Notes: a model not told the origin generated them from the letters alone. Positions 12,243 to 34,023 are shown, counted from the stretch's first letter. The stretch: DNA of 35,819 nucleotides from a virus (IMGVR_UViG_3300045988_054362:1-35819), one strand, 5' to 3'. Numbers and translations are program-made.

Positions 12243-12629
12243 ATAGCGAATGGAAAAGTTGGAAGACCTAACAAGGATTTCGACAAAGAAGAATTTGAAA
12301 AATTGTTAGCTATTCAATGCACGCAAGCAGAAGTATGCTACTTTTTTAACACGACAGATAAGACATTATCAAATTGGTGTAAACGTACATATGGAACTGA
12401 TTTCTCCGAATGTTTAAAAAGGTTCGGCGCACAAGGAAGAATTTCGTTACGAAGAGCGCAATTTAAACTTGCTTCAAAGAGTCCTGCAATGGCTATTTTC
12501 TTAGGAAAACAATTCCTAGGTCAAACTGATAAGGTAGAAACACACTTTGACGCTTCAGAAGTAAATGCAATTAATAAAGCTATGATTACAGATGTAGCAA
12601 AAGAAAGAAGAATTGAAGATTTTGAATAA
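12243..12629 (+). CDS. terS: Terminase small subunit (ATA start)
   Basis: GRPNKDFDKEEFEKLLAIQCTQAEVCYFFNTTDKTLSNWCKR is an N-terminal HTH typical of TerS. The frame opens at 12228 after a TAG. GGGGA lies 7 nt before ATAGCG at 12243. The first canonical codon (TTG 12303) would cut the HTH. Confidence 0.7.
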   Translation: MANGKVGRPNKDFDKEEFEKLLAIQCTQAEVCYFFNTTDKTLSNWCKRTYGTDFSECLKRFGAQGRISLRRAQFKLASKSPAMAIFLGKQFLGQTDKVETHFDASEVNAINKAMITDVAKERRIEDFE

Positions 12630-13947
12630 GCCTGCGCCTTTTAATCAAAAGCAATTAGCTTATCTTAAAAGAACATTTGATTCATGGCTTAATGTGTTAG
12701 AAGGTGGGAAACGTGGAGGAAAGAACGTACTCAACACATACGCTTTCTGTATAGCGTTAGAAACACATCCGGATAAGTTTCATTTAATAGCAGGAACAGA
12801 TACATCATCTGCACGTGTAAACATTGGAGATTGTAATGGATACGGATTGCAAAACTACTTTGCGAATAGATTCAAGGTAGGGAAGTATGAAGGTAAAGAT
12901 TGCTACTACATCAACACAAAGGTTGGCGAAAAGGTTGTATTCTTTGCCGGTGGTGCTAAGAAAGGCTCAGAGAATGCAATACATGGATATTCATACGGCA
13001 TGGCTTACATTACCGAAGCAAATTTATGTTGCATTGAATTCTTACAAGAAGTAATGGATAGAACGATAGCTTCAAGCAATCGAAAGATATTTCATGATTT
13101 AAACCCCAAAGGCAAGAATCATTGGTATTACATAGATTTCTTAAAGTATCATGAGGAGCAACAGAATAAAGATTCTACATATGGTTATAACTATGGGCAT
13201 ACCACCTTAGTTGACAATTATTCTTTAAGTGATGAGCAGATAAGAACGGTCTTGAAATCATACGATAAGAATAGTGTTTATTACAAAAGAGATATAAAAG
13301 GACAAAGGGAAGAAGCCGAAGGACTTGTATTCCCTTATTTTGCTAATGACTGCAAACCTTACCTATTCAAATATCAACATTTAAAAGAGAAGATGAAAGA
13401 ACAAGGAAAAAGGTTCAGTCATTTAATCATAGGAGTTGACTTTGGAGACAATGGCTCGAAATATTCTTGGCATTTAACAGGATTCACAAATGATTGGGAT
13501 TATATGTGGGCACTTGATGAAGGAGATATGGCAAAGTCAAATGCAATAGACGCAACAAAGTTCTGCAAAGCATTTGTAAGATTCTATAAGCGTTGTATTG
13601 AATGTTACGGATATGTAGAATGGATATTTCCGGACAGTGCTTCTAATACGTTGATAAACACGCTTAGAGCTTATTTTTACGCCGAAGGATTAGACGGAAG
13701 TATAATTGCACCGGTCAAGAAGAATGAGCTTACAGACCGTCCTATAACGGTTGATAGCTTACTTGTTACAGGTAGATTGAAAATAGAAGAACATTGTAAG
13801 AACTTAATAAACGCATTGAGCGAATTAGTATGGGATGAAAAGAAAGACATTCCAAAAGATGAGAACGTAAACAATATCAATGATGATTGGGATTCGTTCT
13901 GCTATACATTTATCACACATAGTGGATATATAGATTTAAGGAGGTAA
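12613..13947 (+). CDS. terL: Terminase large subunit (PBSX/XtmB-like)
   Basis: 444 aa with a Walker-A-like GGKRGGKN, an ATPase plus nuclease architecture, and the position after terS. TTG start overlapping the terS end. Confidence 0.85.
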   Translation: MKILNKPAPFNQKQLAYLKRTFDSWLNVLEGGKRGGKNVLNTYAFCIALETHPDKFHLIAGTDTSSARVNIGDCNGYGLQNYFANRFKVGKYEGKDCYYINTKVGEKVVFFAGGAKKGSENAIHGYSYGMAYITEANLCCIEFLQEVMDRTIASSNRKIFHDLNPKGKNHWYYIDFLKYHEEQQNKDSTYGYNYGHTTLVDNYSLSDEQIRTVLKSYDKNSVYYKRDIKGQREEAEGLVFPYFANDCKPYLFKYQHLKEKMKEQGKRFSHLIIGVDFGDNGSKYSWHLTGFTNDWDYMWALDEGDMAKSNAIDATKFCKAFVRFYKRCIECYGYVEWIFPDSASNTLINTLRAYFYAEGLDGSIIAPVKKNELTDRPITVDSLLVTGRLKIEEHCKNLINALSELVWDEKKDIPKDENVNNINDDWDSFCYTFITHSGYIDLRR

Positions 13948-13950
13948 GAA

Positions 13951-15354
13951 ATAGAAACATCTAACACACGTAGACCGTGGTTTCAGAATTACCTAAACGA
14001 TAGAGGGTATTATGTAGATACAAATGCAATTGAGATTATTGAATTGTGTAATAAGTGGTATACAAATACCGAAACAGAATTTCATACGGCATATACCTTG
14101 AACAATGAGGAATACACGTTGGATAAGACAGACTTTGCAAAGCGTTTATGTGAGGATGACGCAAATCTCATTGAAATCCTAGATATAAACGCAACCGAGG
14201 ACAGTGCCACAAATGACATTATTTCAGACATTCTAAACAAGAATAGGTTTGATGTAATGTACAGGAAACAAGTTGAGCAAATGTCTGCAAATGGTACGGT
14301 AGGAGCTTATGTAACGGTATCAAATGCCGAGATTTATGAAGATGGTACATTCAGTGGAGGAGAAATCAGAATCAATTATTGTGATTCAATGAATATCCTT
14401 CCATTAACTGTTATCAATGATGAAATTGTGGAAGTGGCTTTCGTTGGAGTAAATTATGAGAAGTTAAAAAAAGTATATGTGATGGTCATGTTCTTAAAAG
14501 GACAAGACGAAAGATATATTGCAGAAACACATTACTTTAAAGATACAGGCGAAGAAATAAAAGACCGTGCTCAAATTGTTCAATTAGATGTAGTTAAGCC
14601 GTTTGCAATTATGAGAAACGCAAAGGTAAACAACTTACAAATGCAAGGTTACGGCTTACCGAAGATTTGGAGCGCAATTGCTCCACTAAAAACAATTGAT
14701 TTAACAATGACAATGTGGAATCGAGATTTGTTGAAATCAGATAAAATCGTTCTTGTGAATGAAGCATTAATGCAGAAAGACAAGGATGGAAAAGTAAAAC
14801 AGAATCCACAATTAAAGAATATCTTTGTTCAGTTAGGTAGAGATAAGCTACCGGAAGAAAAAGCTTTATGGCAAGAATATAATCCGACAGTTAGAACGGC
14901 AGAAGTTGTGCAATCACTAGAAACGGCGTTAAGTATCTTATCAATGATGTTTGGATTCGGTACAAAGAAATACACGTTTGAGAGTGGAAGAATTGTGACG
15001 GCTACAGAATATATCGGCGAAAACCAAGACGCAATGAAGGAAGTAAATGCACAACGTAAAGAATCTACGGCATATATTCAAGATATTATTCAAGCAATAG
15101 CGTACTTCTATGAATTGACACAAGGCAGAAAGCTTAATATCAATTCATTAGACATTGCTATTGATTATGACGATACATATATCGAGGATAAACAAAGCAC
15201 GGCACAAGCGTTAAGGAATGACGCATTAACATTTGATATTCCAAGATTGAAGATTATGTACTTTATGAAACAATACGGTTTCACAGAAGAAGAAGCAACG
15301 GAGTTATTAAATGAAGAAATTCAAGATGATGGAGAGGGGGATGACGAAGAATAG
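13951..15354 (+). CDS. Portal protein (SPP1 gp6-like), ATA start
   Basis: Size and position match a portal. AGGAGG (13939-13944) lies 6 nt before ATA 13951. The frame opens one codon earlier, at the terL stop. 31 codons have no ATG/GTG/TTG before TTG 14044, which lacks an SD. Confidence 0.8.
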   Translation: METSNTRRPWFQNYLNDRGYYVDTNAIEIIELCNKWYTNTETEFHTAYTLNNEEYTLDKTDFAKRLCEDDANLIEILDINATEDSATNDIISDILNKNRFDVMYRKQVEQMSANGTVGAYVTVSNAEIYEDGTFSGGEIRINYCDSMNILPLTVINDEIVEVAFVGVNYEKLKKVYVMVMFLKGQDERYIAETHYFKDTGEEIKDRAQIVQLDVVKPFAIMRNAKVNNLQMQGYGLPKIWSAIAPLKTIDLTMTMWNRDLLKSDKIVLVNEALMQKDKDGKVKQNPQLKNIFVQLGRDKLPEEKALWQEYNPTVRTAEVVQSLETALSILSMMFGFGTKKYTFESGRIVTATEYIGENQDAMKEVNAQRKESTAYIQDIIQAIAYFYELTQGRKLNINSLDIAIDYDDTYIEDKQSTAQALRNDALTFDIPRLKIMYFMKQYGFTEEEATELLNEEIQDDGEGDDEE

Positions 15355-16157
15355 CAACTACATATTTTCCATTTGTATCAAGAAATGGCGATAGATTAGT
15401 CTTATATGACGCTTTCAGAAGATTGTTCTCAAGTTACTTCACAAATGGAGTGTTCGTAGACGATTCTAGTTCAGACCATTTAAGAGTTGAGAAAGCTCAA
15501 GGCTTAACGCTTACAGTTAAGGCAGGACGAGCAAATATTAATGGAGCGTTCTATTGGCAGAAAGATGACGAAACCATCACACTAGAAAAGAATAGTGCTA
15601 CTAAAAGCTACAATATTATTCTTAGGTTGAATGATAATGACGCATACAGAAACATTTCCTTAGTAGCAAGTGATATTAATAGTGGAATTACAAGAAGCGG
15701 TTCTATTTATGATTTAGTATTAGCTACAGTTACAGTTGAAGGAAGCGCAAGTGAAATCAAAGGCTCAAGTATCACTGATACAAGGTTAGATTCAACACGT
15801 TGTGGAGCAGTTACAAATGCCATAAAGAGTGTTGAAACATTAGATTTATTTACGCAAATGACCGAACTATTCAAAGAAGTAAAAGAGCAGAATCAATCTG
15901 AAATGAGTGCAAATGAAAATGAATTCAATGAATGGTTCGCAAGCGTAAAAGATACGTTGGATTCAAATACCGCAGGTAAGTTAATGAACCGAATTGCAAA
16001 TGTAGAACAAATGCTTATGAATAACCATTTCACTACGATTCTATTAACAGAAGATGGAACACTAGTGGATGAGAACGGTCATGAAATACTAGCCGATTGG
16101 GCGTATGAAGTTGAGTCGGGTGAAGTAGGTACAGATTGGACTTACAAGGTGAAATAG
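15351..16157 (+). CDS. Fibre/receptor-binding-module structural protein, ATA start
   Basis: ATAGCA overlaps the portal stop (aATAGca). The frame opens at 15345. The N-terminus (TTYFPFVSRNGDRLVLYDAFRRLFSSYFTNGV) resembles the conserved fibre-base N-termini of Gram-positive phages (from memory). Confidence 0.55.
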   Translation: MATTYFPFVSRNGDRLVLYDAFRRLFSSYFTNGVFVDDSSSDHLRVEKAQGLTLTVKAGRANINGAFYWQKDDETITLEKNSATKSYNIILRLNDNDAYRNISLVASDINSGITRSGSIYDLVLATVTVEGSASEIKGSSITDTRLDSTRCGAVTNAIKSVETLDLFTQMTELFKEVKEQNQSEMSANENEFNEWFASVKDTLDSNTAGKLMNRIANVEQMLMNNHFTTILLTEDGTLVDENGHEILADWAYEVESGEVGTDWTYKVK

Positions 16158-16168
16158 AGGAGGTATAT

Positions 16169-18199: not shown

Positions 18200-18258
18200 T
18201 TGATTAACTAAATAAGAATATAGTTGATTAATTGAATATAGAAAAAAGGAGGAATAAC

Positions 18259-19254
18259 ATGGTAGGAAAACAAGTTACAGAGCTAAACGCATTGCCTAGC
18301 TTTACAGATAATAGCCTATTGCCTGTACACAATGGCGCAGGATTAAAAAAAGGTTTATTATCTCAATTAGCAAACTATCTAGGAACTAAATTTAGCAATC
18401 CGAATTTATTGATTAATCCGGACTTTAAAGTAAATCAACGTGCGCTTGCAACGTACAGTGAAAATGATTATTCGTTTGATAGATGGAAAATTTACAATAC
18501 AACAGTAAAGCAATTAGGTAATGGGATAAGCTATAAAGGTGGAAGCGCAACAACTAACTCTCTAGGAAATTTAGACAATTATATAAGCCAAATATTGGAT
18601 ACTGAATTAAATGAGGAATTTACAATTTCGATAAAGGTGTCTTCTATTGTAGGTTCGTTCAGACTTGAAGCTATGAAAAAAGGAGGAGACAGTCTTCATG
18701 GTAAAGACGCTCTCATTGGAAAAAAAGAAATCACAACAAACGGAATCCATACGCTAACACTTGATGGTTCAAATGCACCATTAAGTATTATCAGATTTGG
18801 TACTACATCGCAAAGTGGGGCTTGTACAATCGAATGGGTTAAATTGGAAAAAGGTAAACACGCTACTGCTTTTATTCATCCAATTTATAGCGAAGAATAC
18901 GTGAAATGTATGTGGTATTTTCAACCACTTGTCGGAGCTAGAAGCGGTTATGTTTCAAACGGCACTATCTACATTAATGTTCCGGAGGTTAATTCAATGA
19001 GAAATTCTAAACCATCTGCGAATAACAATAAGATGAATTTAGGCGGTTTTATTTATACAGGAACAAACACTTTAATCACGGTTAAAAGGTCAGATATTAT
19101 CGGTGCTATGGTTGACGATTATAAAGAGTTACAGTTAAATCCTTCAAGCGAATTGAAGAATAAATTGAAAGCAATTGGAATTACTACGATTAACTATGAT
19201 ATTGAACCTAGTGGTGGAATTTATCTAGACGCAGAAATTTACGATGATGAATAG
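18259..19254 (+). CDS. Receptor-binding / tail fibre protein candidate
   Basis: ATG follows AAAGGAGG. The N-terminus (VTELNALPSFTDNSLLPVHNGAGLKKGLLSQLANYL) is fibre-attachment-like. The position fits the fibre module. Confidence 0.5.
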   Translation: MVGKQVTELNALPSFTDNSLLPVHNGAGLKKGLLSQLANYLGTKFSNPNLLINPDFKVNQRALATYSENDYSFDRWKIYNTTVKQLGNGISYKGGSATTNSLGNLDNYISQILDTELNEEFTISIKVSSIVGSFRLEAMKKGGDSLHGKDALIGKKEITTNGIHTLTLDGSNAPLSIIRFGTTSQSGACTIEWVKLEKGKHATAFIHPIYSEEYVKCMWYFQPLVGARSGYVSNGTIYINVPEVNSMRNSKPSANNNKMNLGGFIYTGTNTLITVKRSDIIGAMVDDYKELQLNPSSELKNKLKAIGITTINYDIEPSGGIYLDAEIYDDE

Positions 19255-19265
19255 GAGAAGCGAAC

Positions 19266-19607
19266 ATGGTAAGAGTATATATTAACAAAGATTCAGAAAA
19301 TAACATTACATCTATTAATTCAGAAATCTTCTTATCGCAAGAAGAAATTCAAACAATGACAGAAATTGACCAGGGGCAAGGAGATAAATATGCTCACGCT
19401 CAAGGTATGTATCTAGAAAAAGGACTAGTTGATAAATACGGTCGATATAACTACAAATATGTAAATAGTAAGGTGGTTGAGGTTGCAGAAGCAGATAAAC
19501 CAACAATTGAAGAACCAAAAGCAGTGCCTACTGAGCAAGAGAAGATTAACGCACAATTAATGTTACAAATTGCACAGATAAAAGCTCAAATGAATGGGGT
19601 GAAGTAG
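19266..19607 (+). CDS. Fibre-module accessory protein (XkdW-position)
   Basis: ATG follows AGGAGA. It precedes the XkdX-like gene. Confidence 0.4.
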   Translation: MVRVYINKDSENNITSINSEIFLSQEEIQTMTEIDQGQGDKYAHAQGMYLEKGLVDKYGRYNYKYVNSKVVEVAEADKPTIEEPKAVPTEQEKINAQLMLQIAQIKAQMNGVK

Positions 19608-19608
19608 T

Positions 19609-19728: not shown

Positions 19729-19744
19729 GCTTTAAAAGCGTTTT

Positions 19745-19767: not shown

Positions 19768-19784
19768 TGTAGGAGGGCATATAA

Positions 19785-21662: not shown

Positions 21663-22532
21663 ATAGCAAATGAAATTGCATTAGCTAAAACGTATGTCTC
21701 AAATCTTGATGAGGTTTACAAATTAGCTTCAGTAACAGGTGATTTAAACGCCGACGCTACAATGGTTAGAGCAGGAGCAAACGCAAAAGAAATCATCTAT
21801 CCACAGATTGCCGTTAAAGGTTTAGGAAACTACGACAGAAACAATGGTTATACATCTAACTCAGTTAAATTGGAATGGAAAACTGCAACATTCGACTACG
21901 ATAGAGGAACTAAAATCTCAGTTGATACACAAGACAATGCAGAATCAATGAATATTGCGTTCGGTAGAGCAGGAGCAGAATTAATGCGTACAAAGGTAGC
22001 ACCGGAAGCGGACGCTTACACATTCGCTAAAATTGCCGGTACAACAGGAATCACAAAAGTTTCAGAAGATTATGCAAGTGCAGAAGAGTTCTTGAGTGCA
22101 TTGTTAAAAGCGGTTACTAAAATGGATGAGGATGAAGTGCCAAGTGAACAACGTATCTTGTATTCTACTCCTACATTATTGAATAGCGTTAAAGCTTTAG
22201 ATACTTACAAATCACGTGAAGCTTTACAAGGATTCGCAAAGGTAGTTCCTGTACCTGCTAGTCGTTTCTATACAAAGATTAAATTGTTGAGTGGAGCAGA
22301 TACAGAAGCAGAAGGTGGATATACTAAAGCAGAGGATGGACACGTTATCAACTTCTTGATTGTTCATAAACCTTCTGTTATGAAATGGGATAAACACACT
22401 GTTTCAAATGTAATTCCGGCAAGCAATAACATTGAATCAGATTCAGATGTATTGAAATATCGTAAGTATGGAATCGTTGATGTATACGCAAATAAGGTAG
22501 CAGGTATTTACTTATCTGCTAGTGCTAAGTAA
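21663..22532 (+). CDS. Major capsid protein, ATA start
   Basis: AAGGAGG lies 8 nt before ATAGCA at 21663. The frame opens at 21660 after a TAA. 33 codons (ANEIALAKTYVSNLDEVYKLASVTGDLNADAT) precede the first ATG (21762), which has no SD. Confidence 0.8.
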   Translation: MANEIALAKTYVSNLDEVYKLASVTGDLNADATMVRAGANAKEIIYPQIAVKGLGNYDRNNGYTSNSVKLEWKTATFDYDRGTKISVDTQDNAESMNIAFGRAGAELMRTKVAPEADAYTFAKIAGTTGITKVSEDYASAEEFLSALLKAVTKMDEDEVPSEQRILYSTPTLLNSVKALDTYKSREALQGFAKVVPVPASRFYTKIKLLSGADTEAEGGYTKAEDGHVINFLIVHKPSVMKWDKHTVSNVIPASNNIESDSDVLKYRKYGIVDVYANKVAGIYLSASAK

Positions 22533-23004: not shown

Positions 23005-23420
23005 TAGGATTCTTTGACGATTCAATCACACTTGTTAATCACTACTACGATACATTGACAAGAGAAGATAGGTTTCAAGCTTATATTCTTGATAAATGTA
23101 TGTGGAGACAATCTACTATTAGGACTGCAAATGGTAATATTCTGAGCATAGCCACATCCACAAATATTACCATTCTGTATCGTGAGGGATATATTGAACC
23201 TTACGCATACGCAAAGCTTTCAAATGATGAGAAACAAAAACACTTCACATTAAATACAGATAAGACAGATTTCGTGTTCTTTGGAGAAGTGGAAGAAGAT
23301 TTATCCACAATTAAAGCAATAAACGAAGCTAAAAAGAAATACAAATGGACAACAATTCAGAGCGTAACAGATTGTACGAATGTCGATATGTTGAAGCATT
23401 GGGAGGTTGTCGGTCAATAG
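23001..23420 (+). CDS. Head-tail joining / head closure protein
   Basis: ATGA overlap. It lies within the track ORF 22956-23420. The call is positional. Confidence 0.4.
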   Translation: MIGFFDDSITLVNHYYDTLTREDRFQAYILDKCMWRQSTIRTANGNILSIATSTNITILYREGYIEPYAYAKLSNDEKQKHFTLNTDKTDFVFFGEVEEDLSTIKAINEAKKKYKWTTIQSVTDCTNVDMLKHWEVVGQ

Positions 23421-23422
23421 GA

Positions 23423-23779
23423 ATGAAAGTCAAACTTGATGTTGAATCAATACCCAAAATTAAGCAGTCAAGAGGACTTGAAGAACGTGGACGAGTACAA
23501 CAAATGATTGATTCTGAGGTCATTAGGCTTATGTCCCCCTATACGCCTAGAGACACAGGAGCATTGATTAACTCGGCTACACGATTAACACAAATCGGTA
23601 GTGGATTAGTAAAGCAAGGTGGGCCAAGTGCTCCATATGCTAGACGGTGGTATTACAACGAAGAGAATGCTCATTTCGTAGGAGGTAAAACAGACCATTG
23701 GTTTGATAAAGCTATGCGAAATGGTGGAGCAGAGACAATCTTAAAGAAAGCACAACAAATGATAGGAGGTAGTGAATGA
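23423..23779 (+). CDS. HK97 gp10-like head-tail joining protein
   Basis: The ATG lies after the upstream stop. YTPRDTGALINS resembles the gp10-family P-x-D-T-G motif. Confidence 0.5.
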   Translation: MKVKLDVESIPKIKQSRGLEERGRVQQMIDSEVIRLMSPYTPRDTGALINSATRLTQIGSGLVKQGGPSAPYARRWYYNEENAHFVGGKTDHWFDKAMRNGGAETILKKAQQMIGGSE

Positions 23780-24195
23780 CAGTATCAAAAGCATTGATTC
23801 AGTGGCTATATGGCTATGGAAATATACAGATAGATGAACGTATTGAAACGGATGTTTTAGCGCAACAAGCTATCTCTTATGCATTGTATAAAGAACCTAA
23901 TGCAATTGTAGATACATACATTGACGGCTCTCAAATGCGTACTGAATACTACACATTTCTAGCTCGTAGGAATACACAGATTGAATCAGAAAGACAAGAC
24001 AATAATGTTTTTCTAGAAGAATTAGAAAATTGGATTGATGAAAAGAATTTAAACGGAGAATTGCCACAACTAGACGGAAACAGATATTGTCAAGATGTTT
24101 CCGTTTCAAGTGGTTTATATCTATATACAAATGAGGATAATCAAGCAGTATATGCGTTGACTATTCAAATTAAATACAGAAAGGAGCTTAATTAA
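23776..24195 (+). CDS. Tail completion protein candidate
   Basis: ATGA overlap. It sits immediately upstream of the major tail gene. Confidence 0.4.
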   Translation: MTVSKALIQWLYGYGNIQIDERIETDVLAQQAISYALYKEPNAIVDTYIDGSQMRTEYYTFLARRNTQIESERQDNNVFLEELENWIDEKNLNGELPQLDGNRYCQDVSVSSGLYLYTNEDNQAVYALTIQIKYRKELN

Positions 24196-24701
24196 TAGCA
24201 ACTCAAGGAACTGAAGTAAATACAGGACAGACAGTCAAGAAGTATATGATTGGATTGTTCTTAGAAATGGGAACAGGTTACAAGCGAATTAAGAAGTCTA
24301 CAACTTTAGATATTTCGTTTAACAGTGAAACTGAAACGTATGACTTTATCGCAGATAAGAACCCAACAGAATCATTAAAGAGTTATTCACCTCAGATTTC
24401 GCAAGATTTAACAATGATTAAAGGCGAAGATGATTTTGAATACATTTACGAACAAATGATGAAATCCGTACCAAACAACGAAGAAGTAAATACAAAAGCT
24501 TTACTTGTATTCATGTTTGACGGAGACAAAACTAAAGGCTATAAAGCGTGGGAAGTTGACGCTAAATTGATTTTCGATACATTAAGCGGTGTCGATTCAA
24601 AAATCAACTTCAATATTAACTTTGCAAGCGATATTCGTGTCGGTGCTGCAAAGGTAGCAGATGGAACAGTAACCTTCACAGAAGGTACATCAGAAGTATA
24701 A
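24195..24701 (+). CDS. Major tail protein, probable ATA start
   Basis: AAGGAG lies 8 nt before ATAGCA at 24195, in a TAATA overlap with the upstream stop. The frame opens at 24192. The first ATG (24246) lacks an SD. Confidence 0.6.
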   Translation: MATQGTEVNTGQTVKKYMIGLFLEMGTGYKRIKKSTTLDISFNSETETYDFIADKNPTESLKSYSPQISQDLTMIKGEDDFEYIYEQMMKSVPNNEEVNTKALLVFMFDGDKTKGYKAWEVDAKLIFDTLSGVDSKINFNINFASDIRVGAAKVADGTVTFTEGTSEV

Positions 24702-25642: not shown

Positions 25643-25662
25643 AAAAGGAGGTGGCAAATTGA

Positions 25663-28242
25663 ATATCAGACGGAACATTAAAGTTTGATACAAAGATTGA
25701 TACAAGTGGTCTAGAGAATGGACTGAAATCCGTTCATGAAGTCACAAGTGGAGCTACAAATGCTATCAAAGAAACTTCAAAAGCGATTGATAAGTTAGGT
25801 TCTGATGGTTCAAAAGCACCACCAAAGATTAGAGATAAACTTAAAGATTTAAACGAAGAGCAAAAGAATACACAGACAGAAACGCAAGAAACAGGTTCTA
25901 AATTTGATGTATTTAAACAAGTAGGAAACAGTGCCTTAGAATCAATTCAAGGTGGATTTGATGGACTATTAGGAAAGATTCAGAATATTAGTCCGGAAGC
26001 TTCTGCAATCACTGAAACATTAACAGGATTAGGAGTTGGAGGTGTTGTAGGTGTTACTGCCGTAGCAGGAGCTATCGGTGGTATGGCACTAGCAATTAAG
26101 ACAGGTGTTAACCAAGCTACAGAACTAGATGACGCTATGGCTAAATTCCAAGCTCAGACAGGTGCTTCAAGCAATGAAATGAGCAAATTTAAAAACATTG
26201 CTCGTGATGTTTGGTCTAATAATTTTGGTGAAGATATTTCAGATGTTGCCGATATGATGGGCAGAGTCAAGCAACAAATGCAAGGCATAAGTGACGTTGA
26301 CCTAAAGAACGTGACCGAGGATTTATTAACTTTAAGAGATACATTTGATATGGATGAGAATGAAACTCTTAGAGGTGCTCAACAATTAATGAAGCAATTC
26401 GGAATCACTTCTCAAGAAGCTTTCGACCTTATGGCTACAGGTGCTCAGAATGGTTTAAACAAATCAGATGAGTTAGGCGACAACATTTCAGAATACTCCG
26501 GTAAATTCGCACAAGCAGGATATTCGGCAGATGAATATTTCCAATTAATGCAGAATGGATTAGATGGTGGAGCTTATAACCTTGATAAAGTTAATGACGC
26601 AATCAACGAAGTTACCACAAGGTTAGTTGATGGAACTATTGAAGGAGCTTTAGATAGTTTTGATACCAAAACACAAGATGTATTTAAGGCATGGCAAGAA
26701 GGAAGAGCAACTCAAAAAGATGTTGTGAATGCGATTGTAGAAGATATTTCAAAGACTACAAATGAACAAGAAAAGTTGAATAAATCTGCAACGGCTTTCG
26801 GCACAATGGGAGAAGATTTCAACGCCGGATTCATTCAGTCCTTAACGACAGTAGGGAATAAATATAAAGACGTAGAAGGGGCAATGGATAAAGTTAAAGA
26901 TATCGCAAATGGTGGCTTAAAGAACGCTTTAAGTGGCTTAGGACGCGCATTTCTTGATTCATTTACTCCAATAGGCGAACTTATTACCCCTATTCTTGCA
27001 GGCATTGTAGGATTAATTACAGTAGCAATTCAAGGCATTCAACAAGGATTTGCTAAAGTTGGTGATGTAATTTCAAGCGTATTAAGTAAGATTGATACAA
27101 GTGGAATTACAGAATTAACAAATCAAGTTTCCGAAGTGTTAGCTCCTGCGTTTGATGAAGTTAGAAAAGCTATTGATGAAATGAAAGTTGCGCTTGAACC
27201 TATTGCAAAAGAAATCTTAGGTAAAATTGGTAACGCAATTCAAAATGTTGTTAACCAAGCTCAAAAGATTCTTAGCGTTGTAGGACCACCGATTCTAGCA
27301 ATCATTAAGAAGATTATTCAAACAGTTATCGGTATGATTCCTGTAATAACATCTATTCTTCAAGTAGTTGGAAGTGTGGTAAGTGGAATCATTTCATTTA
27401 TAACTATGGTTGTGAAGTATGTCGGAACTGCAATTGCAACAATACTAGGATTTATCATGCCTATTGTTCAAATTGTTGCTACAATCGTAGCGAATATTTG
27501 GTCTGTAATATTAACGGTTGCTCAAAATATTTGGAGCAAGATTAGCGAAGTGGTTACTGCAATTATTGGATTTGTCAACAATTTGTTTAAGACGGTTTCG
27601 GATATCATAAACAATATTTGGAGCAAGATTCAAGATACAATGAACAGAGTAGGAGATAAAGTTAAAGGTGTTATTGATAATATCAATAAATATTTCAATA
27701 ATATCAAATCTACGGTTTCTGATGTATTCAATGGCATTTGGGCTAAAGTTCAAGGTGTAATGGATAATGTAGGAAATAAAATTTCAAATGTTTTACAAGG
27801 AATACAAAATTCATGGAGTGGTTTAAAAGGATTTGTAAGTGGTGTATTTGGTGGAATTGAAGGAGCAGTTAGTTCGTTAGTTGGAAGTGTAAAAGGAATG
27901 GTAAATGGTGTTATCGGTGGCATTAACGGTGCAATCGGTATCATCAATAAGATTCCCGGAGTTCACATTGGAAAGATTCCAAGACTAGAGCGTGGTGGTG
28001 TATTGAAGCGTGGCCAAATCGGTTTATTAGAAGGTAATGGAGCAGAAGCGGTTGTACCTTTAGAAAGAAATAAAGCATGGATTCGTGCCGTAGCTAAAGA
28101 TATGGCTCAAATCATGCCTAGTGTAACCACAAACAACAATGGGCAGACTATCAACTTCTACAATAAAGCTCAAAGTCCGGATGAAATCGCTCGAATGTTA
28201 CGCATGCAGGCAAGATATGGATATGGAGGTGTAGTTCAATAG
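25663..28242 (+). CDS. Tape measure protein, ATA start
   Basis: There is an in-frame TGA at 25660-25662, then ATA. GGAGG lies 11 nt upstream. 140 codons have no ATG/GTG/TTG before ATG 26083. The N-terminus (SDGTLKFDTKIDTSGLENG) is TMP-like. Long helical/hydrophobic repeats (NIWSKI...) follow. Confidence 0.8.
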   Translation: MSDGTLKFDTKIDTSGLENGLKSVHEVTSGATNAIKETSKAIDKLGSDGSKAPPKIRDKLKDLNEEQKNTQTETQETGSKFDVFKQVGNSALESIQGGFDGLLGKIQNISPEASAITETLTGLGVGGVVGVTAVAGAIGGMALAIKTGVNQATELDDAMAKFQAQTGASSNEMSKFKNIARDVWSNNFGEDISDVADMMGRVKQQMQGISDVDLKNVTEDLLTLRDTFDMDENETLRGAQQLMKQFGITSQEAFDLMATGAQNGLNKSDELGDNISEYSGKFAQAGYSADEYFQLMQNGLDGGAYNLDKVNDAINEVTTRLVDGTIEGALDSFDTKTQDVFKAWQEGRATQKDVVNAIVEDISKTTNEQEKLNKSATAFGTMGEDFNAGFIQSLTTVGNKYKDVEGAMDKVKDIANGGLKNALSGLGRAFLDSFTPIGELITPILAGIVGLITVAIQGIQQGFAKVGDVISSVLSKIDTSGITELTNQVSEVLAPAFDEVRKAIDEMKVALEPIAKEILGKIGNAIQNVVNQAQKILSVVGPPILAIIKKIIQTVIGMIPVITSILQVVGSVVSGIISFITMVVKYVGTAIATILGFIMPIVQIVATIVANIWSVILTVAQNIWSKISEVVTAIIGFVNNLFKTVSDIINNIWSKIQDTMNRVGDKVKGVIDNINKYFNNIKSTVSDVFNGIWAKVQGVMDNVGNKISNVLQGIQNSWSGLKGFVSGVFGGIEGAVSSLVGSVKGMVNGVIGGINGAIGIINKIPGVHIGKIPRLERGGVLKRGQIGLLEGNGAEAVVPLERNKAWIRAVAKDMAQIMPSVTTNNNGQTINFYNKAQSPDEIARMLRMQARYGYGGVVQ

Positions 28243-29111
28243 ATATCAATAAAGTAAGAGTTATTGTCCGTAGGGATGATGGAAAAGAATTTGAAATCGA
28301 CAACCAAAAAAGATGGAAGATTCCTTCAAGTAGTGGTTTAGATGGATTTGATTATGTAGCACCTTCATATACAACTCAAGACAATGCATTCGGAAACGGT
28401 GCTAGATTAATCGGTTCACGTATTCCTACAAAAGAAAGAAGCGTGAAAGCTACCTTTAAAGGCTCACTAGAAGAAAAAAGAGAAGAAAGGGAGAAGCTAC
28501 GGCGCTTCTTCCAATATTCTCATATATTTGATGTGATAGTCGAGTACATGGGAGAAAAGAAATATTGCAGAGGTAGATTATATGCGTATAGCTTACCAAC
28601 TGCTAACATCTACAAAGAATTAGAACTTGACTTTACGATATTATGCACACAACCTTTATTACTTTCATTTGATGATTTTGCAATGAATATTGCAGAAATT
28701 GGGGAAGGTTTAGCGTTCAATTTTGAAATACCGGAAACAGGCGTAAACTTTGGAACATTTACATTCGCTAGAGAAATCTATATTGATAATCAAGGCGATA
28801 CAGAAACATACTGTAGAGCAGTTATTGAAGCATTTGGAGATGTAACGAATCCAAAACTATTCAATAAAGATAAATATATTCGTGTATTAGATACACTACA
28901 CAATGGTGATGTATTAGAAATTGATTTAGTTTCTGAGCCTATTTCGATTAAAAAGAATGGTGTGAATTGTATCGGCAAAGTTGACAGAACCTCATCATTC
29001 AATGATATGACGATTCATTTAGGTGAGAATATCATAGGATATACGGCAGACAATGGAGATACGAATCTAGCTTGCACGGTTTATTACAATGAAAGGTATT
29101 TAGGTTTATAG
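28239..29111 (+). CDS. Distal tail protein (Dit), ATA start
   Basis: ATAGAT overlaps the TMP stop (caATAGat). GGAGG lies 9 nt upstream. 68 codons without a canonical start precede GTG 28443 and encode a typical Dit N-terminal domain. Confidence 0.7.
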   Translation: MDINKVRVIVRRDDGKEFEIDNQKRWKIPSSSGLDGFDYVAPSYTTQDNAFGNGARLIGSRIPTKERSVKATFKGSLEEKREEREKLRRFFQYSHIFDVIVEYMGEKKYCRGRLYAYSLPTANIYKELELDFTILCTQPLLLSFDDFAMNIAEIGEGLAFNFEIPETGVNFGTFTFAREIYIDNQGDTETYCRAVIEAFGDVTNPKLFNKDKYIRVLDTLHNGDVLEIDLVSEPISIKKNGVNCIGKVDRTSSFNDMTIHLGENIIGYTADNGDTNLACTVYYNERYLGL

Positions 29112-29112
29112 T

Positions 29113-30126
29113 ATGTCTTATTTTGGATTAGATAAAGATTTCAATATTGTTACACATCTAGCACCTTATAACGTGCAGTGGAATCGGCGATATTATGAAA
29201 CAGGAGATTTCGAGATTTATATTGATATAGGGCAGTATTCAAGCAATATCAAATATATTTATTCGACTGAGGATAAAGAGTTAGGAATTGTAGAAATACC
29301 ACATTATTCGGTTTCAAATAACACGAAACAAATGTTGCTAAAAGGCTCTTTCTTTGAAAAGATACTAGCAGATGATTGTATTTATCCTACATTTGCAAGT
29401 AGTGGAAAGATTGTTGATGTAGTAAAAAAGCTATTAGACAAGTATTGCTCATGGAAAATGGGATATAGATATGATGAATCCATCACAGATAGAGTAGACT
29501 TTCAAGAAACAGGAGAGAACCTTGATAAGAAGTTATATGAGTTACTCTATCCGTTAGAATTGTCGTTCCGCATAGAATATGACTATGTGTCAAGTACGTT
29601 CACATTCGTGTTGTATCGTGGTCGTGACTTGACTCAGAACAATGCAGATGGAAACAACTTTGTTACATTCTCTACAGAGTTTGGAAACATTGAAGAACCG
29701 GATGTTATGATTGATTCTAGTAAATACAAGAACTATGCAATCATTTGTGGTGAAGGACAGTCAGAAGAGCGTATTTATGTAGAATATGACGCTAGAATAG
29801 ATAAGAATGAAAGAATTAAAAAATTGTTCGTAGACGCACGTTCTGAGCGTATGGGTGATGATGTGACACTTGAGGATTACAAGAAAGCATTGATTCAAAA
29901 AGGAATTGAAAAACTAGCGGATTGTCAAATTGAAGAGAATGTGAATTTCAATTTAAATACGGATTCATACGAATACAAGGTTGATTATGATTTAGGTGAT
30001 AAAGTTGATGTTATAGTGGCAGATATCGGTTTAGTAATGACGGCAAGAATTAGAAATATATTTGAAGTCATTAAAAGTGGATATAGAACCTTAGAATTAG
30101 AGGTTGATAATTTAAAAATCATGTAA
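29113..30126 (+). CDS. Siphovirus Gp37-like tail-tip protein
   Basis: The N-terminus (YFGLDKDFNIVTHLAPYNVQWNRRYYETGDFEIYI) matches the Sipho_Gp37 pattern (from memory). It follows Dit. Confidence 0.55.
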   Translation: MSYFGLDKDFNIVTHLAPYNVQWNRRYYETGDFEIYIDIGQYSSNIKYIYSTEDKELGIVEIPHYSVSNNTKQMLLKGSFFEKILADDCIYPTFASSGKIVDVVKKLLDKYCSWKMGYRYDESITDRVDFQETGENLDKKLYELLYPLELSFRIEYDYVSSTFTFVLYRGRDLTQNNADGNNFVTFSTEFGNIEEPDVMIDSSKYKNYAIICGEGQSEERIYVEYDARIDKNERIKKLFVDARSERMGDDVTLEDYKKALIQKGIEKLADCQIEENVNFNLNTDSYEYKVDYDLGDKVDVIVADIGLVMTARIRNIFEVIKSGYRTLELEVDNLKIM

Positions 30127-30138
30127 GGAGTGAATTTA

Positions 30139-30651
30139 ATAGAAAAGAAAAATGGAGGATTTAAACAAATAGCAAGAAGTATGTTTTTTCTAGATAAGAT
30201 TAATGCAATGTGTGGTGTTGCCGTAGCCGTATTAACATACGTATTAGGTGAACATTGGTATTTATTCGCATTCTTCTTATTTATGAATGTAGTGGATTAT
30301 ATTACAGGGTGCATGAAATCGGCTATCGCTCATAAAATCAATAGCAACAAAGGTTGGACAGGTGTTTTAAAAAAGCTAGGCTATTGGATTATGATTGTTG
30401 TTGCGTTCACATTTAGTGCATTTCTAGTAGAAGTAGGAGAAATTCTAGGAATTGATTTCCATGTATCTACATTGTTAGGTTGGTTTGTGTTAGCTTCGTT
30501 ATGTATTAATGAATCTCGTAGTGTTATGGAGAATTTATTACAATGTGGTTACAATGTACCAAAAGCATTAACTAAAGGATTAGAAGTAGCAGATAAACTC
30601 ATTAACGAAAACGAAGAACAAGACAATGACGAATCAAGTACCTTGGAATAA
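30139..30651 (+). CDS. Holin (LL-H/phiLC3 family); start ambiguous (ATA 30139, ATA 30169 or ATG 30181)
   Basis: Three hydrophobic helices and the DYITG motif. AAGGAG lies 8 nt before ATAGAA at 30139. The listed GTG 30130 is inside the SD. Confidence 0.7.
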   Translation: MEKKNGGFKQIARSMFFLDKINAMCGVAVAVLTYVLGEHWYLFAFFLFMNVVDYITGCMKSAIAHKINSNKGWTGVLKKLGYWIMIVVAFTFSAFLVEVGEILGIDFHVSTLLGWFVLASLCINESRSVMENLLQCGYNVPKALTKGLEVADKLINENEEQDNDESSTLE

Positions 30652-30892
30652 GATTATTCTTGAAGAATTTATTAATCTAGCTTTATTAACTAAAGATGAA
30701 GAAATGATTCTAAGAACTAGAATATACGGATGGACAGTCAGAGAACAAGCCGATAGATTAAATATGAGTGTTTCTAGCGTTAATAGAATCATCAAAAAGA
30801 TTAAGAACAAGTATGATGAAGTAGAGAAGTATAGCGCAGTCCTACCACCAAGAAAAAGCAGTGAAAAAGAAATGTATCTAGATAAGAATTAA
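30626..30892 (+). CDS. Small sigma-70 region-4-like HTH regulator
   Basis: LTKDEEMILRTRIYGWTVREQADRLNMSVSSVNRIIKKIKNKY resembles a region-4/LuxR-type HTH. It overlaps the holin 3' end. Confidence 0.5.
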   Translation: MTNQVPWNKIILEEFINLALLTKDEEMILRTRIYGWTVREQADRLNMSVSSVNRIIKKIKNKYDEVEKYSAVLPPRKSSEKEMYLDKN

Positions 30893-30917
30893 GAGGTTGA
30901 AAAACCTCTTTTTTTTT
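30891..30917 (+). terminator. Strong intrinsic terminator
   Basis: AAGAGGTT, loop GAAA, AACCTCTT, followed by T7. Confidence 0.8.
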
Positions 30918-30995
30918 GACATTTATCTGATATTAATGTGAAAACAAACTGAAACTGCCTATGAATATAATTATGAGTGTAAAGAGGTGAGCGAA

Positions 30996-31421
30996 ATGTA
31001 TAATCCAATCAATGACAGAATTAACAATTTAATGAATCAAAAGCAGATGATTGAATCACAGTTACAAAACATTCAACAGTTAGCAAATATTCCACCTATT
31101 AACATAAACAACCAAATCACGCCTAACATGGCATTGAATGATTTCAATGGAAAATGGGTTAATAATGAGCAAGAAGCAAGGAATATGATGGTGAATGGTT
31201 TGCCTAGTATTATGCTAGATAGAAATGATTCAGTATTCTATATGAAGTCTTTAGACGGCAGTTTCAAAAAATACAGATTCCAAGAAGAAACAGAGCCAAA
31301 GAAAGACAACATAGAACAACGCTTAGACAAGCTAGAAGCTATGATATTAGGTCTAACAAACGGAAGTAATATAAATACAAAGGCAGAGAAAGAAACGCCT
31401 AGAAAGGAGCTTAAAGCGTGA
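30996..31421 (+). CDS. Q/N-rich hypothetical protein
   Basis: ATG follows AGAGGTG at 6 nt. No recognisable domain. Confidence 0.5.
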   Translation: MYNPINDRINNLMNQKQMIESQLQNIQQLANIPPININNQITPNMALNDFNGKWVNNEQEARNMMVNGLPSIMLDRNDSVFYMKSLDGSFKKYRFQEETEPKKDNIEQRLDKLEAMILGLTNGSNINTKAEKETPRKELKA

Positions 31422-31627
31422 ATCCTTTAATGAATATGATGAACCCTCAACAAATGTTATTGGGTATGTTACAACAAAGAAATCCACAAGCATTTAATCA
31501 AGTTCAACAATTAATGCAAAGTGGACAGAATCCCCAAGTATTGCTTAACAATATGATGGGACAACTAACGCCACAACAGAAACAACAGTTTGAAAATGTG
31601 GCTTCTCAGTATGGGCTAAAACGCTAA
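31418..31627 (+). CDS. Small Q/M/N-rich protein with NPQ repeats
   Basis: GTG follows AAGGAG at 8 nt. Low-complexity sequence with repeated NPQ..M(L/M) motifs. Confidence 0.45.
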   Translation: MNPLMNMMNPQQMLLGMLQQRNPQAFNQVQQLMQSGQNPQVLLNNMMGQLTPQQKQQFENVASQYGLKR

Positions 31628-31651
31628 TTGCGTTGAAAGGAGGAAATATAA

Positions 31652-32263
31652 ATGGAAAGCATGAATGGTATTCAACCAATGTACGATTTAGCAGACAGAA
31701 ACAACAATGAATTTGGTGGAGGATATTGGATTTGGATTATCCTTTTATTCTTACTATTTGGTGGAAACTGGGGTAACAATGGCAATATGCAGAATGACGC
31801 ATTAATGAATCAAGAATTTATTAAGCGTGATTTATTCAACACAAATCAGAATGTATCTAGCCAAGGCTATCAAAATTCAAGAGACATTTTAGAAAGCCGA
31901 TACACTACACAATTAGGCTTACAGAATCTAGGTCAACAGACTCAAGAATGTTGTTGCGTGAAGCAAAGAGCGATTGATGGAGTAAATGCACAAAACTTTA
32001 AGAACACGTGTGATATTACCACTGCAATCCACTCAGAAGCCGAAGCAACAAGAGCATTGATTAATGCTAACACAATGCAAGAATTGCGTGATAAATTAGC
32101 AGACAGAGATAGAGATTTATTGACTGCGAACTTCCAATTAAGTCAACAGGCGCAATCTGCAAATATCATCAATACATTGCAACCAACGCCAAAACCTGCA
32201 TATCTTACTTGCTCACCTTATTATGCGTATAATATGACAGGTTGTGGATGTAACCAAATCTAG
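31652..32263 (+). CDS. Membrane-anchored, cysteine-rich Q/N-rich protein
   Basis: ATG follows AAAGGAGGA. Gly-flanked TM segment (GGGYWIWIILLFLLFGGNWG). Cys clusters at ECCCV and CSPYYAYNMTGCGC. Confidence 0.55.
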   Translation: MESMNGIQPMYDLADRNNNEFGGGYWIWIILLFLLFGGNWGNNGNMQNDALMNQEFIKRDLFNTNQNVSSQGYQNSRDILESRYTTQLGLQNLGQQTQECCCVKQRAIDGVNAQNFKNTCDITTAIHSEAEATRALINANTMQELRDKLADRDRDLLTANFQLSQQAQSANIINTLQPTPKPAYLTCSPYYAYNMTGCGCNQI

Positions 32264-32298
32264 CTCGAAAGAGATTAGGCAATAGCCTTTGGATTATA

Positions 32299-32327
32299 GG
32301 GTAGTCGAAAGGCTACCCATTTATTTT
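32299..32327 (+). terminator. Intrinsic terminator with a GNRA-type loop
   Basis: GGGTAGTC, loop GAAA, GGCTACCC, then ATTTATTTT. Confidence 0.65.
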
Positions 32328-32345
32328 ATATAGGAGGAAAAGAAA

Positions 32346-32765
32346 ATGATTAATAGTATAGCAACGGCAGTACAGACAGTAGCAAACGGACAAAATGTAT
32401 TATTTCCAACGGACAGAGTAAGAACGAAATCTTGTCAATGTGCTTGTAAAGGTTGGCTTGCTCATGATGTAGGAAGTGGACTATTTACATTGACGAAACA
32501 AGGAATTTATGAAGTAGAATATACGGCAGACATCACAAGTGCAACAGTAGGAGTCGCTTCTTTAGAGCTAGAACAGAATGGAGAAGCAGTAGGAGGAACA
32601 GAATCTCTATATAATGTAGCTACTGCAAGTGCATATGGAAATGTTAGTGGCGCAACATTGATTCAAGTACCTTGTGGAGCTTCTTACACAATCACGCTAG
32701 GAAATAACAGTGGTTTAGATTTATCTGTTCAAAATGCAAATATCATCATTAAGAAATTAGCGTAG
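32346..32765 (+). CDS. BclA-C-terminal/C1q-like beta-sandwich domain protein (candidate)
   Basis: ATG follows TAGGAGGAA. The pattern GIYEVEYTADITSA ... LELEQNGEAVGGT ... ATLIQVPCGASYTITL ... NANIIIKKL resembles exosporium BclA-type globular domains (from memory). Confidence 0.4.
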   Translation: MINSIATAVQTVANGQNVLFPTDRVRTKSCQCACKGWLAHDVGSGLFTLTKQGIYEVEYTADITSATVGVASLELEQNGEAVGGTESLYNVATASAYGNVSGATLIQVPCGASYTITLGNNSGLDLSVQNANIIIKKLA

Positions 32766-32772
32766 GTGTATC

Positions 32773-33210
32773 ATGCAAGAGGTTAGAAAAAGGAATCTAG
32801 ACCTCTTAACAGAAGCAATGAGAGGACTAGAAAAAGGATACAATGATTTAGATTTTAAAGTCATGAGCCAAGCTTTAGACAATATCAAAGACATTGATAC
32901 AATACTAGCTATGGATGATGGAAGAACGGCTATAAATGCATTAAAAACAAATGATACAGATATTGAAGGAACGGAAATTGATGATAATATTGCATTGATG
33001 AATAGCCATTTTAGGAAATACATAGAAGCTAAAAAAGAATATAGAAAAGATAACAATGAAATTGATAAACGAAATTCGATTCGTGAATTAGAAGCTTTTT
33101 TGAATGCTATGTATGGAATCTTAGAAGAAATGAAAACATCTAGCGATTTTCAAGAAGAAAGAGAAATGGTCAGAGATAAATTAAGAGAAATGTTCTCAGT
33201 ATATCAGTAA
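32773..33210 (+). CDS. Hypothetical helical protein
   Basis: ATG follows TAGGTG. 145 aa. Confidence 0.5.
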   Translation: MQEVRKRNLDLLTEAMRGLEKGYNDLDFKVMSQALDNIKDIDTILAMDDGRTAINALKTNDTDIEGTEIDDNIALMNSHFRKYIEAKKEYRKDNNEIDKRNSIRELEAFLNAMYGILEEMKTSSDFQEEREMVRDKLREMFSVYQ

Positions 33211-33220
33211 TAAAAACCTC

Positions 33221-33237
33221 TTTTATGTGCTATAATT
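33221..33237 (+). promoter_or_regulatory. Extended -10 promoter (TGcTATAAT) in front of the endolysin; copy 1 of a 17-nt repeat
   Basis: TTTTATGTGCTATAATT with TATAAT at 33231-33236. An identical 17-mer occurs at 34088-34104. Confidence 0.5.
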
Positions 33238-33261
33238 AGTGCATAAAGGAGGATTTTTTTA

Positions 33262-34023
33262 ATAAATTATCAAAATTTCAAAAAAGCCGTATTAGGCAAA
33301 GCATTCGACATTGACGGATACTATGGTTCGCAATGTTGGGACGGATTCGCAAAGTACATGATTGATTTAGGCTATCAAGCTATTCATTGCACAACGAGTA
33401 AATTTGTTAAGGACATTTGGAACAACAGAAAGACAAACGGAATCTTAAACTACTGCAATGAAGTTTCAATTATGCAACCTGGAGACATTGCCGTCTTTAA
33501 AGAAGTAGCAGGATGGACGCCATACAGTCATATTGCTATTTTTGATTCAGATATTGACGGTAAATTTGGATGGTTCTTAGGACAGAACCAAGGTGGAAAG
33601 AATGGAGCATTTACACTTTGCAAATTGCCTTATTACGCAACGTTTGATACCGCATTTAGACCTAAATGTTTCGCAAATAGTGGAGCTACAAGTCCAAGCA
33701 TTCCACAACCTGTGGAAGCAATCGACCAAATCTTACACGCAGGAAGTTACGTAACATCAGTTCAAATGAAGATTGGCAATCAAGGATTGAAAAACATCAA
33801 TAACGAGACTTGTGCTTATTTACCACAATTAGGCGGTTTGTTTCCAATTCGTATGGTTGACAAAGTTCGCTATTCTGATGGATATAATGATAACGTATTG
33901 CATACAACAAATGCCGTTGTCTATGTAACTAGAATTCGTGTTGATGAAGTCAATGTGCAAAAGAATCTTGCAAAAATCGGTGGAATTTGGGTAAATTGTG
34001 ACCCATTAATTGAAGTAGCATAA
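33262..34023 (+). CDS. Endolysin, N-terminal CHAP amidase/peptidase plus a C-terminal wall-binding domain, ATA start
   Basis: The CHAP motifs are DIDGYYGSQCWDG (catalytic Cys), YSHIAIF (His) and LGQNQGG. The Cys is encoded at about 33334, upstream of the first ATG (33358). The frame opens at 33247. GGAGG lies 9 nt before ATA 33262. Confidence 0.8.
   Translation: MNYQNFKKAVLGKAFDIDGYYGSQCWDGFAKYMIDLGYQAIHCTTSKFVKDIWNNRKTNGILNYCNEVSIMQPGDIAVFKEVAGWTPYSHIAIFDSDIDGKFGWFLGQNQGGKNGAFTLCKLPYYATFDTAFRPKCFANSGATSPSIPQPVEAIDQILHAGSYVTSVQMKIGNQGLKNINNETCAYLPQLGGLFPIRMVDKVRYSDGYNDNVLHTTNAVVYVTRIRVDEVNVQKNLAKIGGIWVNCDPLIEVA

Follow-up and report, generated by a model that had tools for sequence, protein, structure and literature searches.

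ATA start codons and a phage-encoded, initiator-derived tRNA with the anticodon UAU in a clade of gut phages

The virus sequence IMGVR_UViG_3300045988_054362:1-35819 (hereafter the window, meaning the whole stretch of 35,819 nucleotides that was analyzed) is a phage genome of 35.8 kb and 33% GC whose genes lie almost all on the plus strand. Thirteen of them open with ATA behind a Shine-Dalgarno (SD) sequence, at positions 12243, 13951, 15351, 21663, 24195, 25663, 28239, 33262, 30139, 5760, 11162, 23417, and 2119. These are about one-fifth of roughly 60 genes, and about 45 others open with ATG or GTG behind an SD. The same genome encodes, at 11706..11781 (+), a tRNA that descends from a bacterial initiator tRNA and carries the anticodon UAU and a uridine at position 37. 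From comparison with related phages, all from gut metagenomes, we consider it probable that translation from A-AUA starts is initiated by this tRNA and that the 13 genes depend on it. The dependent set would include the replication initiator, small terminase (terS), portal, major head, tail, tape measure, distal tail (Dit), holin, and endolysin proteins, and the clade would have A-AUA as a second start signal, which the phage's own derivative of the bacterial initiator would decode in the ribosomal P site.

An initial annotation, made from the sequence alone, had listed 11 of these sites, and all 11 were borne out: at each of them ATA stands at or near the opening of a long reading frame with an SD 4–11 nt upstream. 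In the eight main cases, described there as lacking an early canonical start, the first in-frame ATG, GTG, or TTG lies 17–140 codons downstream. Two sites lie beyond that list, 23417 and, more weakly, 2119. An earlier start-calling heuristic with decoy codons was too noisy and was replaced by an orphan-SD test, in which strong SDs without a canonical start within 3–14 nt were collected and the triplet opening a long frame at 5–10 nt was tallied. In this test ATA ranked first with 8 sites in the window and with 102 sites in related loci totaling 401 kb, and it did not reach the top 12 in distant, ATG-using relatives totaling 334 kb. An alternative genetic code was ruled out; the code is standard, with 26 genes ending in TAA, 16 in TAG, and 14 in TGA (56 genes), and the frequency of TGG is normal.

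The N termini of homologs, named in the initial annotation as a means of deciding the matter, agree with the ATA starts. Using the ATA-translated capsid protein as a query, we identified 78 loci in IMG/VR. The first capsid codon is ATA in 35 of 35 contigs at 91–99% identity, the aligned codon is ATG in 56 distant homologs (34–62% identity) from IMG/VR and GTDB, and a Pro/Ala-Asn-x-Ile motif following the capsid start is common to the ATG homologs and the ATA clade. Positions 2–10 of PHROG profiles align with residues 2–6 of the ATA-initiated proteins; for example, residue 2 of the major head protein aligns with position 2 of phrog_422, residue 3 of a head protein with position 8 of phrog_1220, residue 2 of the endolysin with position 5, and residue 2 of the replication protein with position 2. 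Every other ATA site reads ATA in 24–35 related contigs, and the contigs come from at least seven datasets. The start codon also switches occasionally among clade members: a few contigs show ATG in the tail and holin genes, and a few show ATA in a gene at 18259 that starts with ATG in the window. Homologous terS alleles open with either 'gacac ATG GCA AGA AAA AAA ATT ATT' or 'tataaa ATA GCA AGA AAA AAA ATT ATT', and the terS openings in the clade other than that of the window are, in all, ATA-GCA-GAG, ATA-GCA-AGA, and ATG-GCA-AGA. Sequence comparison thus establishes both the positions of the ATA starts and their conservation.

Over the stretches from each ATA to the next canonical start, the sites that vary among relatives number 86, 53, and 246 at codon positions 1, 2, and 3, respectively (chi-square p = 9e-37), the pattern of protein-coding evolution in the ATA frame. 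The tape measure extension by itself has 30, 19, and 92. The extensions had been described as typical of their protein families, and this is so for the CHAP-domain endolysin, in which the domain starts at residue 18, ahead of the first ATG at residue 33. The expectation that standard gene callers would truncate these genes was likewise correct: the public calls on the matching ENA metagenome scaffold (BRIT16-1_SAMN02334078 scaffold_776) give 46 aa for terS, 436 for the portal, 256 for the major capsid protein, 719 for the tape measure protein, and 187 for Dit. Over 12243-34023 the ATA genes are clipped or missed in these calls, and there are unannotated gaps of up to 441 nt.

All 13 ATA genes are on the plus strand. 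In terS (12243..12629), ATA codons stand in tandem at 12240 and 12243, and the exact start is ambiguous between them. The portal gene (13951..15354) has the SD AAGGAGGT, and its ATA is attested in relatives, by PHROG alignment, and by codon-position variation. The head or virion structural gene at 15351..16157 starts at an ATAG overlap with the portal stop; the ATA start proposed for it was upheld, but its assignment to a fiber module was not, the matches being "head protein" PHROGs. The major head gene (21663..22532) follows the SD AAGGAGG, a minor head or head-tail gene (23417..23779) has the SD GGAGGT and an ATAG overlap with the upstream stop, and the gene at the major-tail position (24195..24701; phrog_3099) begins in a TAATA overlap. 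The tape measure gene (25663..28242) runs 140 codons before its first canonical start, and Dit (28239..29111) begins in an ATAG overlap with the tape measure stop. The holin gene (Phage_holin_4_1; 30139..30651) and the endolysin gene (33262..34023) complete the late set. On the early side, the gene for a replication initiation or DnaD-like protein (5760..6488) has the SD GGAGGTGA, PHROG alignments beginning at residues 2–5, and ATA in relatives, and a small protein (11162..11356; SD AGGAGGTG) has a probable ATA start with an ATG two codons downstream. The weakest case is a possible small open reading frame (ORF) at 2119..2244, with the SD GGAGGTGA and A at −1 and with an in-frame ATG at 2092, nine codons upstream. 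Next to this ORF we observed a type II hammerhead ribozyme at 2041-2107 (+; Rfam RF02276, 37.8 bits against a gathering score of 37) with the core motifs CUGAUGA, GAAAC, and GUC intact; its 3′ end abuts the SD of the possible ORF, and the ATG at 2092 lies inside it.

The base preceding ATA is fixed as well. Position −1 is A at all 13 ATA starts of the window versus 22 of 43 canonical starts (Fisher p = 9e-4). Across the clade we compiled 46 ATA-start contexts, some of them from alternative terS and early genes that the window does not contain. Position −1 is A in 41 of the 46, and the other five resemble false calls. Among relatives, positions −5 to −2 of the ATA sites vary around a constant A at −1, even at the 11162 site with its eight upstream haplotypes, whereas −1 varies freely at ATG and GTG sites. 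Alignment therefore establishes −1 A as a rule of the ATA starts. SD pairing is also stronger at ATA than at canonical starts (mean −14.0 vs. −10.7 kcal/mol, p = 4e-4), and G is found at +4 in 10 of 13 ATA starts versus 10 of 43 canonical ones, but the +4 G is not essential, the capsid gene opening with ATA-CCA in most relatives. In E. coli, high-throughput analysis of tRNAfMet position 37 against mRNA position −1, with variants including A37U, found translation to be favored when the two are complementary (PMC10018350). The A37 of a host initiator would favor U at −1, so the invariant A speaks for reading by the phage tRNA and against reading by the host tRNA, and with U37 opposite −1 A the signal looks like AAUA read by UAUU through four A-U pairs.

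The tRNA gene that the initial annotation had placed at 11706 is real, matching Rfam RF00005 with 49.1 bits at 11706-11778. ARAGORN found no tRNA in the window, a false negative due to a bulged T-stem and odd loops. The molecule has an acceptor stem AGCAGGA/UCCUGCA with an A1xA72 mismatch, discriminator A73, and an encoded CCA; a D-stem GAGC/GCUC (A11:U24) with a short 7-nt D-loop, AGUAGUA; an anticodon stem UCGGU/GCCGA with the loop CUUAUUA; a variable loop AGGUC; and a T-stem GAA(c)GG/CCUUC with one bulged base and a T-loop UGCAAAU. Compared with the bacterial initiator loop CUCAUAA, CUUAUUA differs by exactly two changes, C34U and A37U. Among 50,697 phage and GenBank records, the annotated best blastn matches to the UAU tRNA are all tRNA-Met(CAU), and the four that were fetched (from Salmonella, Listeria, Staphylococcus, and a fecal phage) have C1xA72, GGG/CCC, and CAU, as true initiators do, and share 75–81% identity with it. 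Related contigs carry nine variants of the tRNA, whose cloverleaf is 99.4% paired. The anticodon stem occurs in two forms, UCGGU/GCCGA and CUAGU/GCUAG, which differ by three compensatory pairs, and the loop CUUAUUA, A1xA72, G2:C71, C3:G70, A11:U24, G30:C40, A73, and CCA are invariant over the nine.

Several of the features that set initiator tRNAs apart are present in the window and in all nine variants. There is no Watson-Crick pair at 1:72, A11:U24 is invariant, the formylation determinants G2:C71 and C3:G70 are accompanied by A73 (formylation itself being only predicted), and the closest relatives are initiator tRNAs. The anticodon, in contrast, is UAU instead of CAU in every variant, and the three GC pairs 29:41, 30:40, and 31:39 are not all kept: they are G:C, G:C, and U.G in the window and mostly A:U, G:C, and U.G in relatives, with C:G at 31:39 in one variant, so that only G30:C40 is constant. 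According to a mutational study (PMC5389676), G30:C40 is the essential one of the initiator's three pairs, and natural initiators of the au/GC/gu type exist. An elongator tRNA-Ile(UAU) would have a paired 1:72, a purine at 37 (t6A37), and a pyrimidine at 11 with a purine at 24, whereas the phage tRNA has A1xA72, U37, and A11:U24. These comparisons establish the initiator ancestry of the UAU tRNA.

The tRNA appears to form a transcription unit of its own. A terminator-like hairpin with a T-run (11666..11688, +), kept in all relatives, ends the upstream replication block directly before it; our scan placed this hairpin on the minus strand (11682-11666), and on the plus strand the hairpin is followed by TTTTTT. 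An extended −10-like element, TGtAATAAT (11691..11699, +), lies 6 nt before tRNA position 1; it is TGcGATAAT in some relatives, and the form TGnNATAAT is kept in all of their upstream flanks. This element is the putative promoter of the tRNA, and its spacing of 6 nt may put the transcription start at or next to the mature 5′ end, bypassing RNase P. Between the tRNA and the terminator is a conserved hairpin of ~70 nt (11788..11856, +; fold z = −2.6), whose outer helix AAAGCCUA/UAGGCUUU is replaced by AAAGUUUA/UAGACUUU in some relatives; it could be a cotranscribed small RNA or a processing element. In two relatives, unrelated sequence stands in its place. A second hairpin resembling an intrinsic terminator, with a T-run (11864..11890, +), closes the unit and is kept in relatives.

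A survey of related phages for co-occurrence, suggested in the initial annotation, found the tRNA in 31 of 31 portal-anchored loci that extend at least 5.3 kb upstream, and there it lies 2.2–5.2 kb from the portal gene. Two pattern scans of IMG/VR found it in 35 contigs, all of this clade, with a single further match. That match (L005, IMGVR_UViG_3300043595_000031; 62 kb, 62% GC) was rejected as an ATA phage, there being no ATA starts in 9.7 kb; its tRNA(UAU) at 9634-9709 (−) has initiator-like D and anticodon arms but also a G1.U72 pair, A37, and U73, is called tRNA-Ile by ARAGORN, and is probably an elongator. Adjoining it at 9462-9534 is an odd tRNA-like gene with a two-base anticodon call. 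No canonical initiator body with A, G, or T at position 34 was found by the IMG/VR scan. A metagenome scan, among whose matches the ATA clade did not figure, yielded 15 unrelated contigs (L224-L239) with initiator-like UAU tRNAs, some having a 1x72 mismatch; no ATA-start pattern was seen in them, their flanks being too short to judge, and some of these tRNAs may be organellar or decayed copies. Among them, L225 and L239 have C1xA72, 37% GC, and an encoded CCA, L228 has A1xA72 and 68% GC, and L234 has a canonical initiator body changed only by C34U.

A second phage group (L181-L222, 40–47 kb), from the same metagenomes as the ATA clade, shares segments of ~90% identity with that clade and has neither the UAU tRNA nor ATA starts; a 13-nt match to the tRNA in this group was dismissed as a chance match inside a gene. 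A conserved 82-aa gene of the group apparently has an ATT or ATC start behind AAGGAG, and several of its contigs end in a tRNA-Asp(GTC) that is probably the integration site.

We propose the following mechanism. C34U would make the anticodon complementary to AUA, and A37U would make position 37 complementary to the invariant −1 A, so that initiation would rest on four A-U pairs (AAUA:UAUU) aided by stronger-than-average SD pairing; the stronger SDs at ATA starts fit a weak codon-anticodon helix made entirely of A-U pairs. That the tRNA is expressed, charged, formylated, and used in the P site, and that it reads the ATA starts, we infer from sequence comparison, on which all of the evidence rests. 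E. coli methionyl-tRNA synthetase (MetRS) depends heavily on C34, a UAU anticodon makes a poor MetRS substrate, and E. coli initiator mutants accept the amino acid that matches their anticodon. Because UAU suits MetRS poorly, Ile is by analogy the likelier guess for the first amino acid, ahead of Met. No synthetase, formyltransferase, deformylase, or tRNA-modifying enzyme was found among the window genes in a PHROG scan.

Several observations weigh against an initiator role. The three consecutive GC pairs are not kept, and the third (ug) is oriented opposite to known natural variants. The elbow is unusual, with a short D-loop without G19, with G55, and with a bulged T-stem, and the tRNA could be poorly functional. 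One contig (L007, IMGVR_UViG_3300029219_000010; also L206) has ATA-start head and tail genes and no tRNA within the 16 kb examined; over its left 5.9 kb it matches a contig of the second phage group at 100% identity, the ATA-start genes lie in its right part, and it is either a natural recombinant with its tRNA elsewhere or an assembly chimera. The same side of the balance holds the finding that AUA serves ordinary initiators: in Firmicutes, S. aureus has AUA starts at infC, ccpN, and citZ with extended SDs and 10–30% of AUG efficiency (bioRxiv 10.1101/2025.06.19.660503). The ATA codons might accordingly be near-cognate starts for host fMet-tRNA(CAU) acting through an extended SD, with the UAU tRNA being an elongator tRNA-Ile for internal AUA or nonfunctional. 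The stronger SDs of the ATA genes (p = 4e-4) suit this explanation too, as does the use of ATA as an internal codon, at 13.2 per 1000 in the clade versus 9.2 in co-occurring phages without the tRNA, which makes an elongator role compatible with codon usage; and the second phage group has its single ATT/ATC-start gene without a special tRNA. It leaves unexplained, however, why −1 is A when host A37 would prefer U, and why an elongator should have initiator descent with a 1x72 mismatch, A11:U24, G2:C71, and C3:G70. It would also mean that the most abundant virion proteins are made from an attenuating start, and ATA starts are confined to the clade that carries the tRNA, the nearest outside capsids (≤62% identity) all starting with ATG. 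We therefore regard near-cognate initiation by the host tRNA as rather improbable.

The ATA starts could instead be read by the phage tRNA and yet serve no regulatory purpose, G-to-A changes at starts with −1 A having been tolerated once a UAU initiator existed and having drifted in. The alternation of ATG and ATA at the same start codon among close relatives is as expected from such drift, as are the AT-rich genome (33% GC), the spread of ATA genes over early and late modules, and the retention of ATG by most late genes. Drift accounts less well for the same 10–13 sites being ATA in nearly all of the ~35 contigs, with rare reversions, or for the enrichment of ATA among late, abundant, or essential proteins (p = 0.026); the tRNA is moreover kept in 31 of 31 loci, though dependence alone would give the same result. 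Drift without purpose is a possibility to be taken seriously, if not the one we would expect. An artifact of sequencing, assembly, or base modification, the true codons being ATG, is exceedingly improbable. G-to-A miscalls can be systematic, but nothing was found in support of them here; the same ATA codons occur in ~35 independent contigs, ATG is read normally in the window at about 45 other starts and at 233 internal codons, and a matching tRNA exists. An artifact is effectively excluded because the contigs carrying the ATA sites span at least seven datasets.

What purpose initiation by the phage tRNA might serve is a separate matter. The initial annotation had proposed a private initiation codon coupled to an initiator-like UAU tRNA and had read it as a licence on late genes. 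The first part is supported by the ancestry of the tRNA, its identity elements, the 31/31 co-occurrence, and the pairing of U37 with −1 A; the licence is not established and is partly contradicted. Three ATA genes (2119, 5760, and 11162) lie in the early or replication region, and canonical starts prevail in the late region: 18 of 28 late-region genes start with ATG, GTG, or TTG, among them terL and the genes for the scaffold, a minor capsid protein, the tail chaperones, and the Gp37-like tail protein. The late enrichment of ATA starts is modest (10 of 28 late-region genes vs. 3 of 31 elsewhere, p = 0.026). A wider version, in which a natural orthogonal initiation channel with a four-base A-AUA signal and probable (formyl-)Ile N termini is used as a switch on replication, virion, and lysis proteins, we put forward tentatively and would not favor at present. 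Under it, synthesis of these proteins would require the tRNA and might persist under shutdown of host initiation or an attack on the host initiator tRNA.

The nearest known systems each differ from the phage system in a defining respect. Bacterial tRNAfMet (CAU) is the nearest relative of the phage tRNA, with 75–81% identity, and shares with it the 1:72 mismatch, G2:C71, C3:G70, A11:U24, A73, and G30:C40 as well as the loop positions C32, U33, A35, U36, and A38. The phage tRNA, in contrast, has UAU, U37, one or two of the three GC pairs, a shortened D-loop, G55, and a bulged T-stem, and its gene is phage encoded and lies beside ATA start codons. Engineered initiators with a changed anticodon (the amber initiator; tRNA(AAC), bioRxiv 10.1101/2021.05.25.445580) moved initiation to the complementary codon. 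Together with the position-37 mutants (PMC10018350), they embody the same principle, by which a U37 tRNA should favor −1 A. These are laboratory constructs, whereas the phage system is natural and conserved in a clade, combines both changes, and is matched by recoded genes. Some phages recode stop codons by means of phage-encoded suppressor tRNAs; structural and lysis genes are affected, and a timing or lock function has been proposed. There too, through the unusual anticodon of a phage tRNA, a codon acquires a meaning that is poorly supplied by the host alone, but stop-codon recoding acts in elongation, whereas ATA is a second start codon and internal ATA needs no new meaning. The near-cognate AUA and AUU starts of bacteria (infC autoregulation; infC, ccpN, and citZ of S. 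aureus) resemble the ATA system in their extended SDs and low-GC Gram-positive setting; they differ in being attenuating, limited to few genes per genome, and without a dedicated tRNA, whereas the ATA clade has ATA at ~20% of genes including the major capsid, a matching tRNA, and a fixed −1 A. AUA is a regular start codon in animal mitochondria, where a single tRNA-Met with a modified C34 serves AUG and AUA alike, in initiation as well as in elongation, and AUA always stands for Met; the phage, unlike these, has a separate initiator-type tRNA with a true UAU anticodon. A literature search, with most subscription journals outside its reach, found no prior description of a natural phage initiator tRNA with a non-CAU anticodon or of a phage clade with systematic ATA starts.

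Should the tRNA function as its sequence suggests, the clade would provide a natural expansion of the start codons and a virus-owned second start signal, so far known only from laboratory constructs. One could then ask whether mobile elements recode initiation as well as termination, and synthetic biology would gain a ready-made orthogonal pair of initiator and start signal with a fourth base pair. The possibility is also raised of natural proteins that start with a residue other than methionine. Regardless of mechanism, gene callers clip or miss about one-fifth of the genes of this clade, and its capsid, portal, tape measure, Dit, terS, and endolysin proteins are N-terminally clipped in databases, the clipped endolysin being without the start of its CHAP domain.

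Profile searches of the window proteins indicate a siphovirus gene set with a temperate-type layout. The late region had no megablast match among GenBank phages, and no close prophage was found in GTDB genomes, where the best match is a Clostridia metagenome-assembled genome with a capsid of 62% identity and an ATG start. No integrase was recognized in the window, and a minus-strand ORF at 161-802 (214 aa) had no PHROG match. A cI-like repressor gene at 789-1163, on the minus strand, suggests a temperate lifestyle, and it is followed on the early side by genes for Erf, NinB, the replication initiator, a DNA methyltransferase, and SSB. The late genes run in the order terS, terL, portal, head proteins, scaffold, major head, tail, chaperones, tape measure, Dit, Gp37-like tail protein, holin, and CHAP endolysin.

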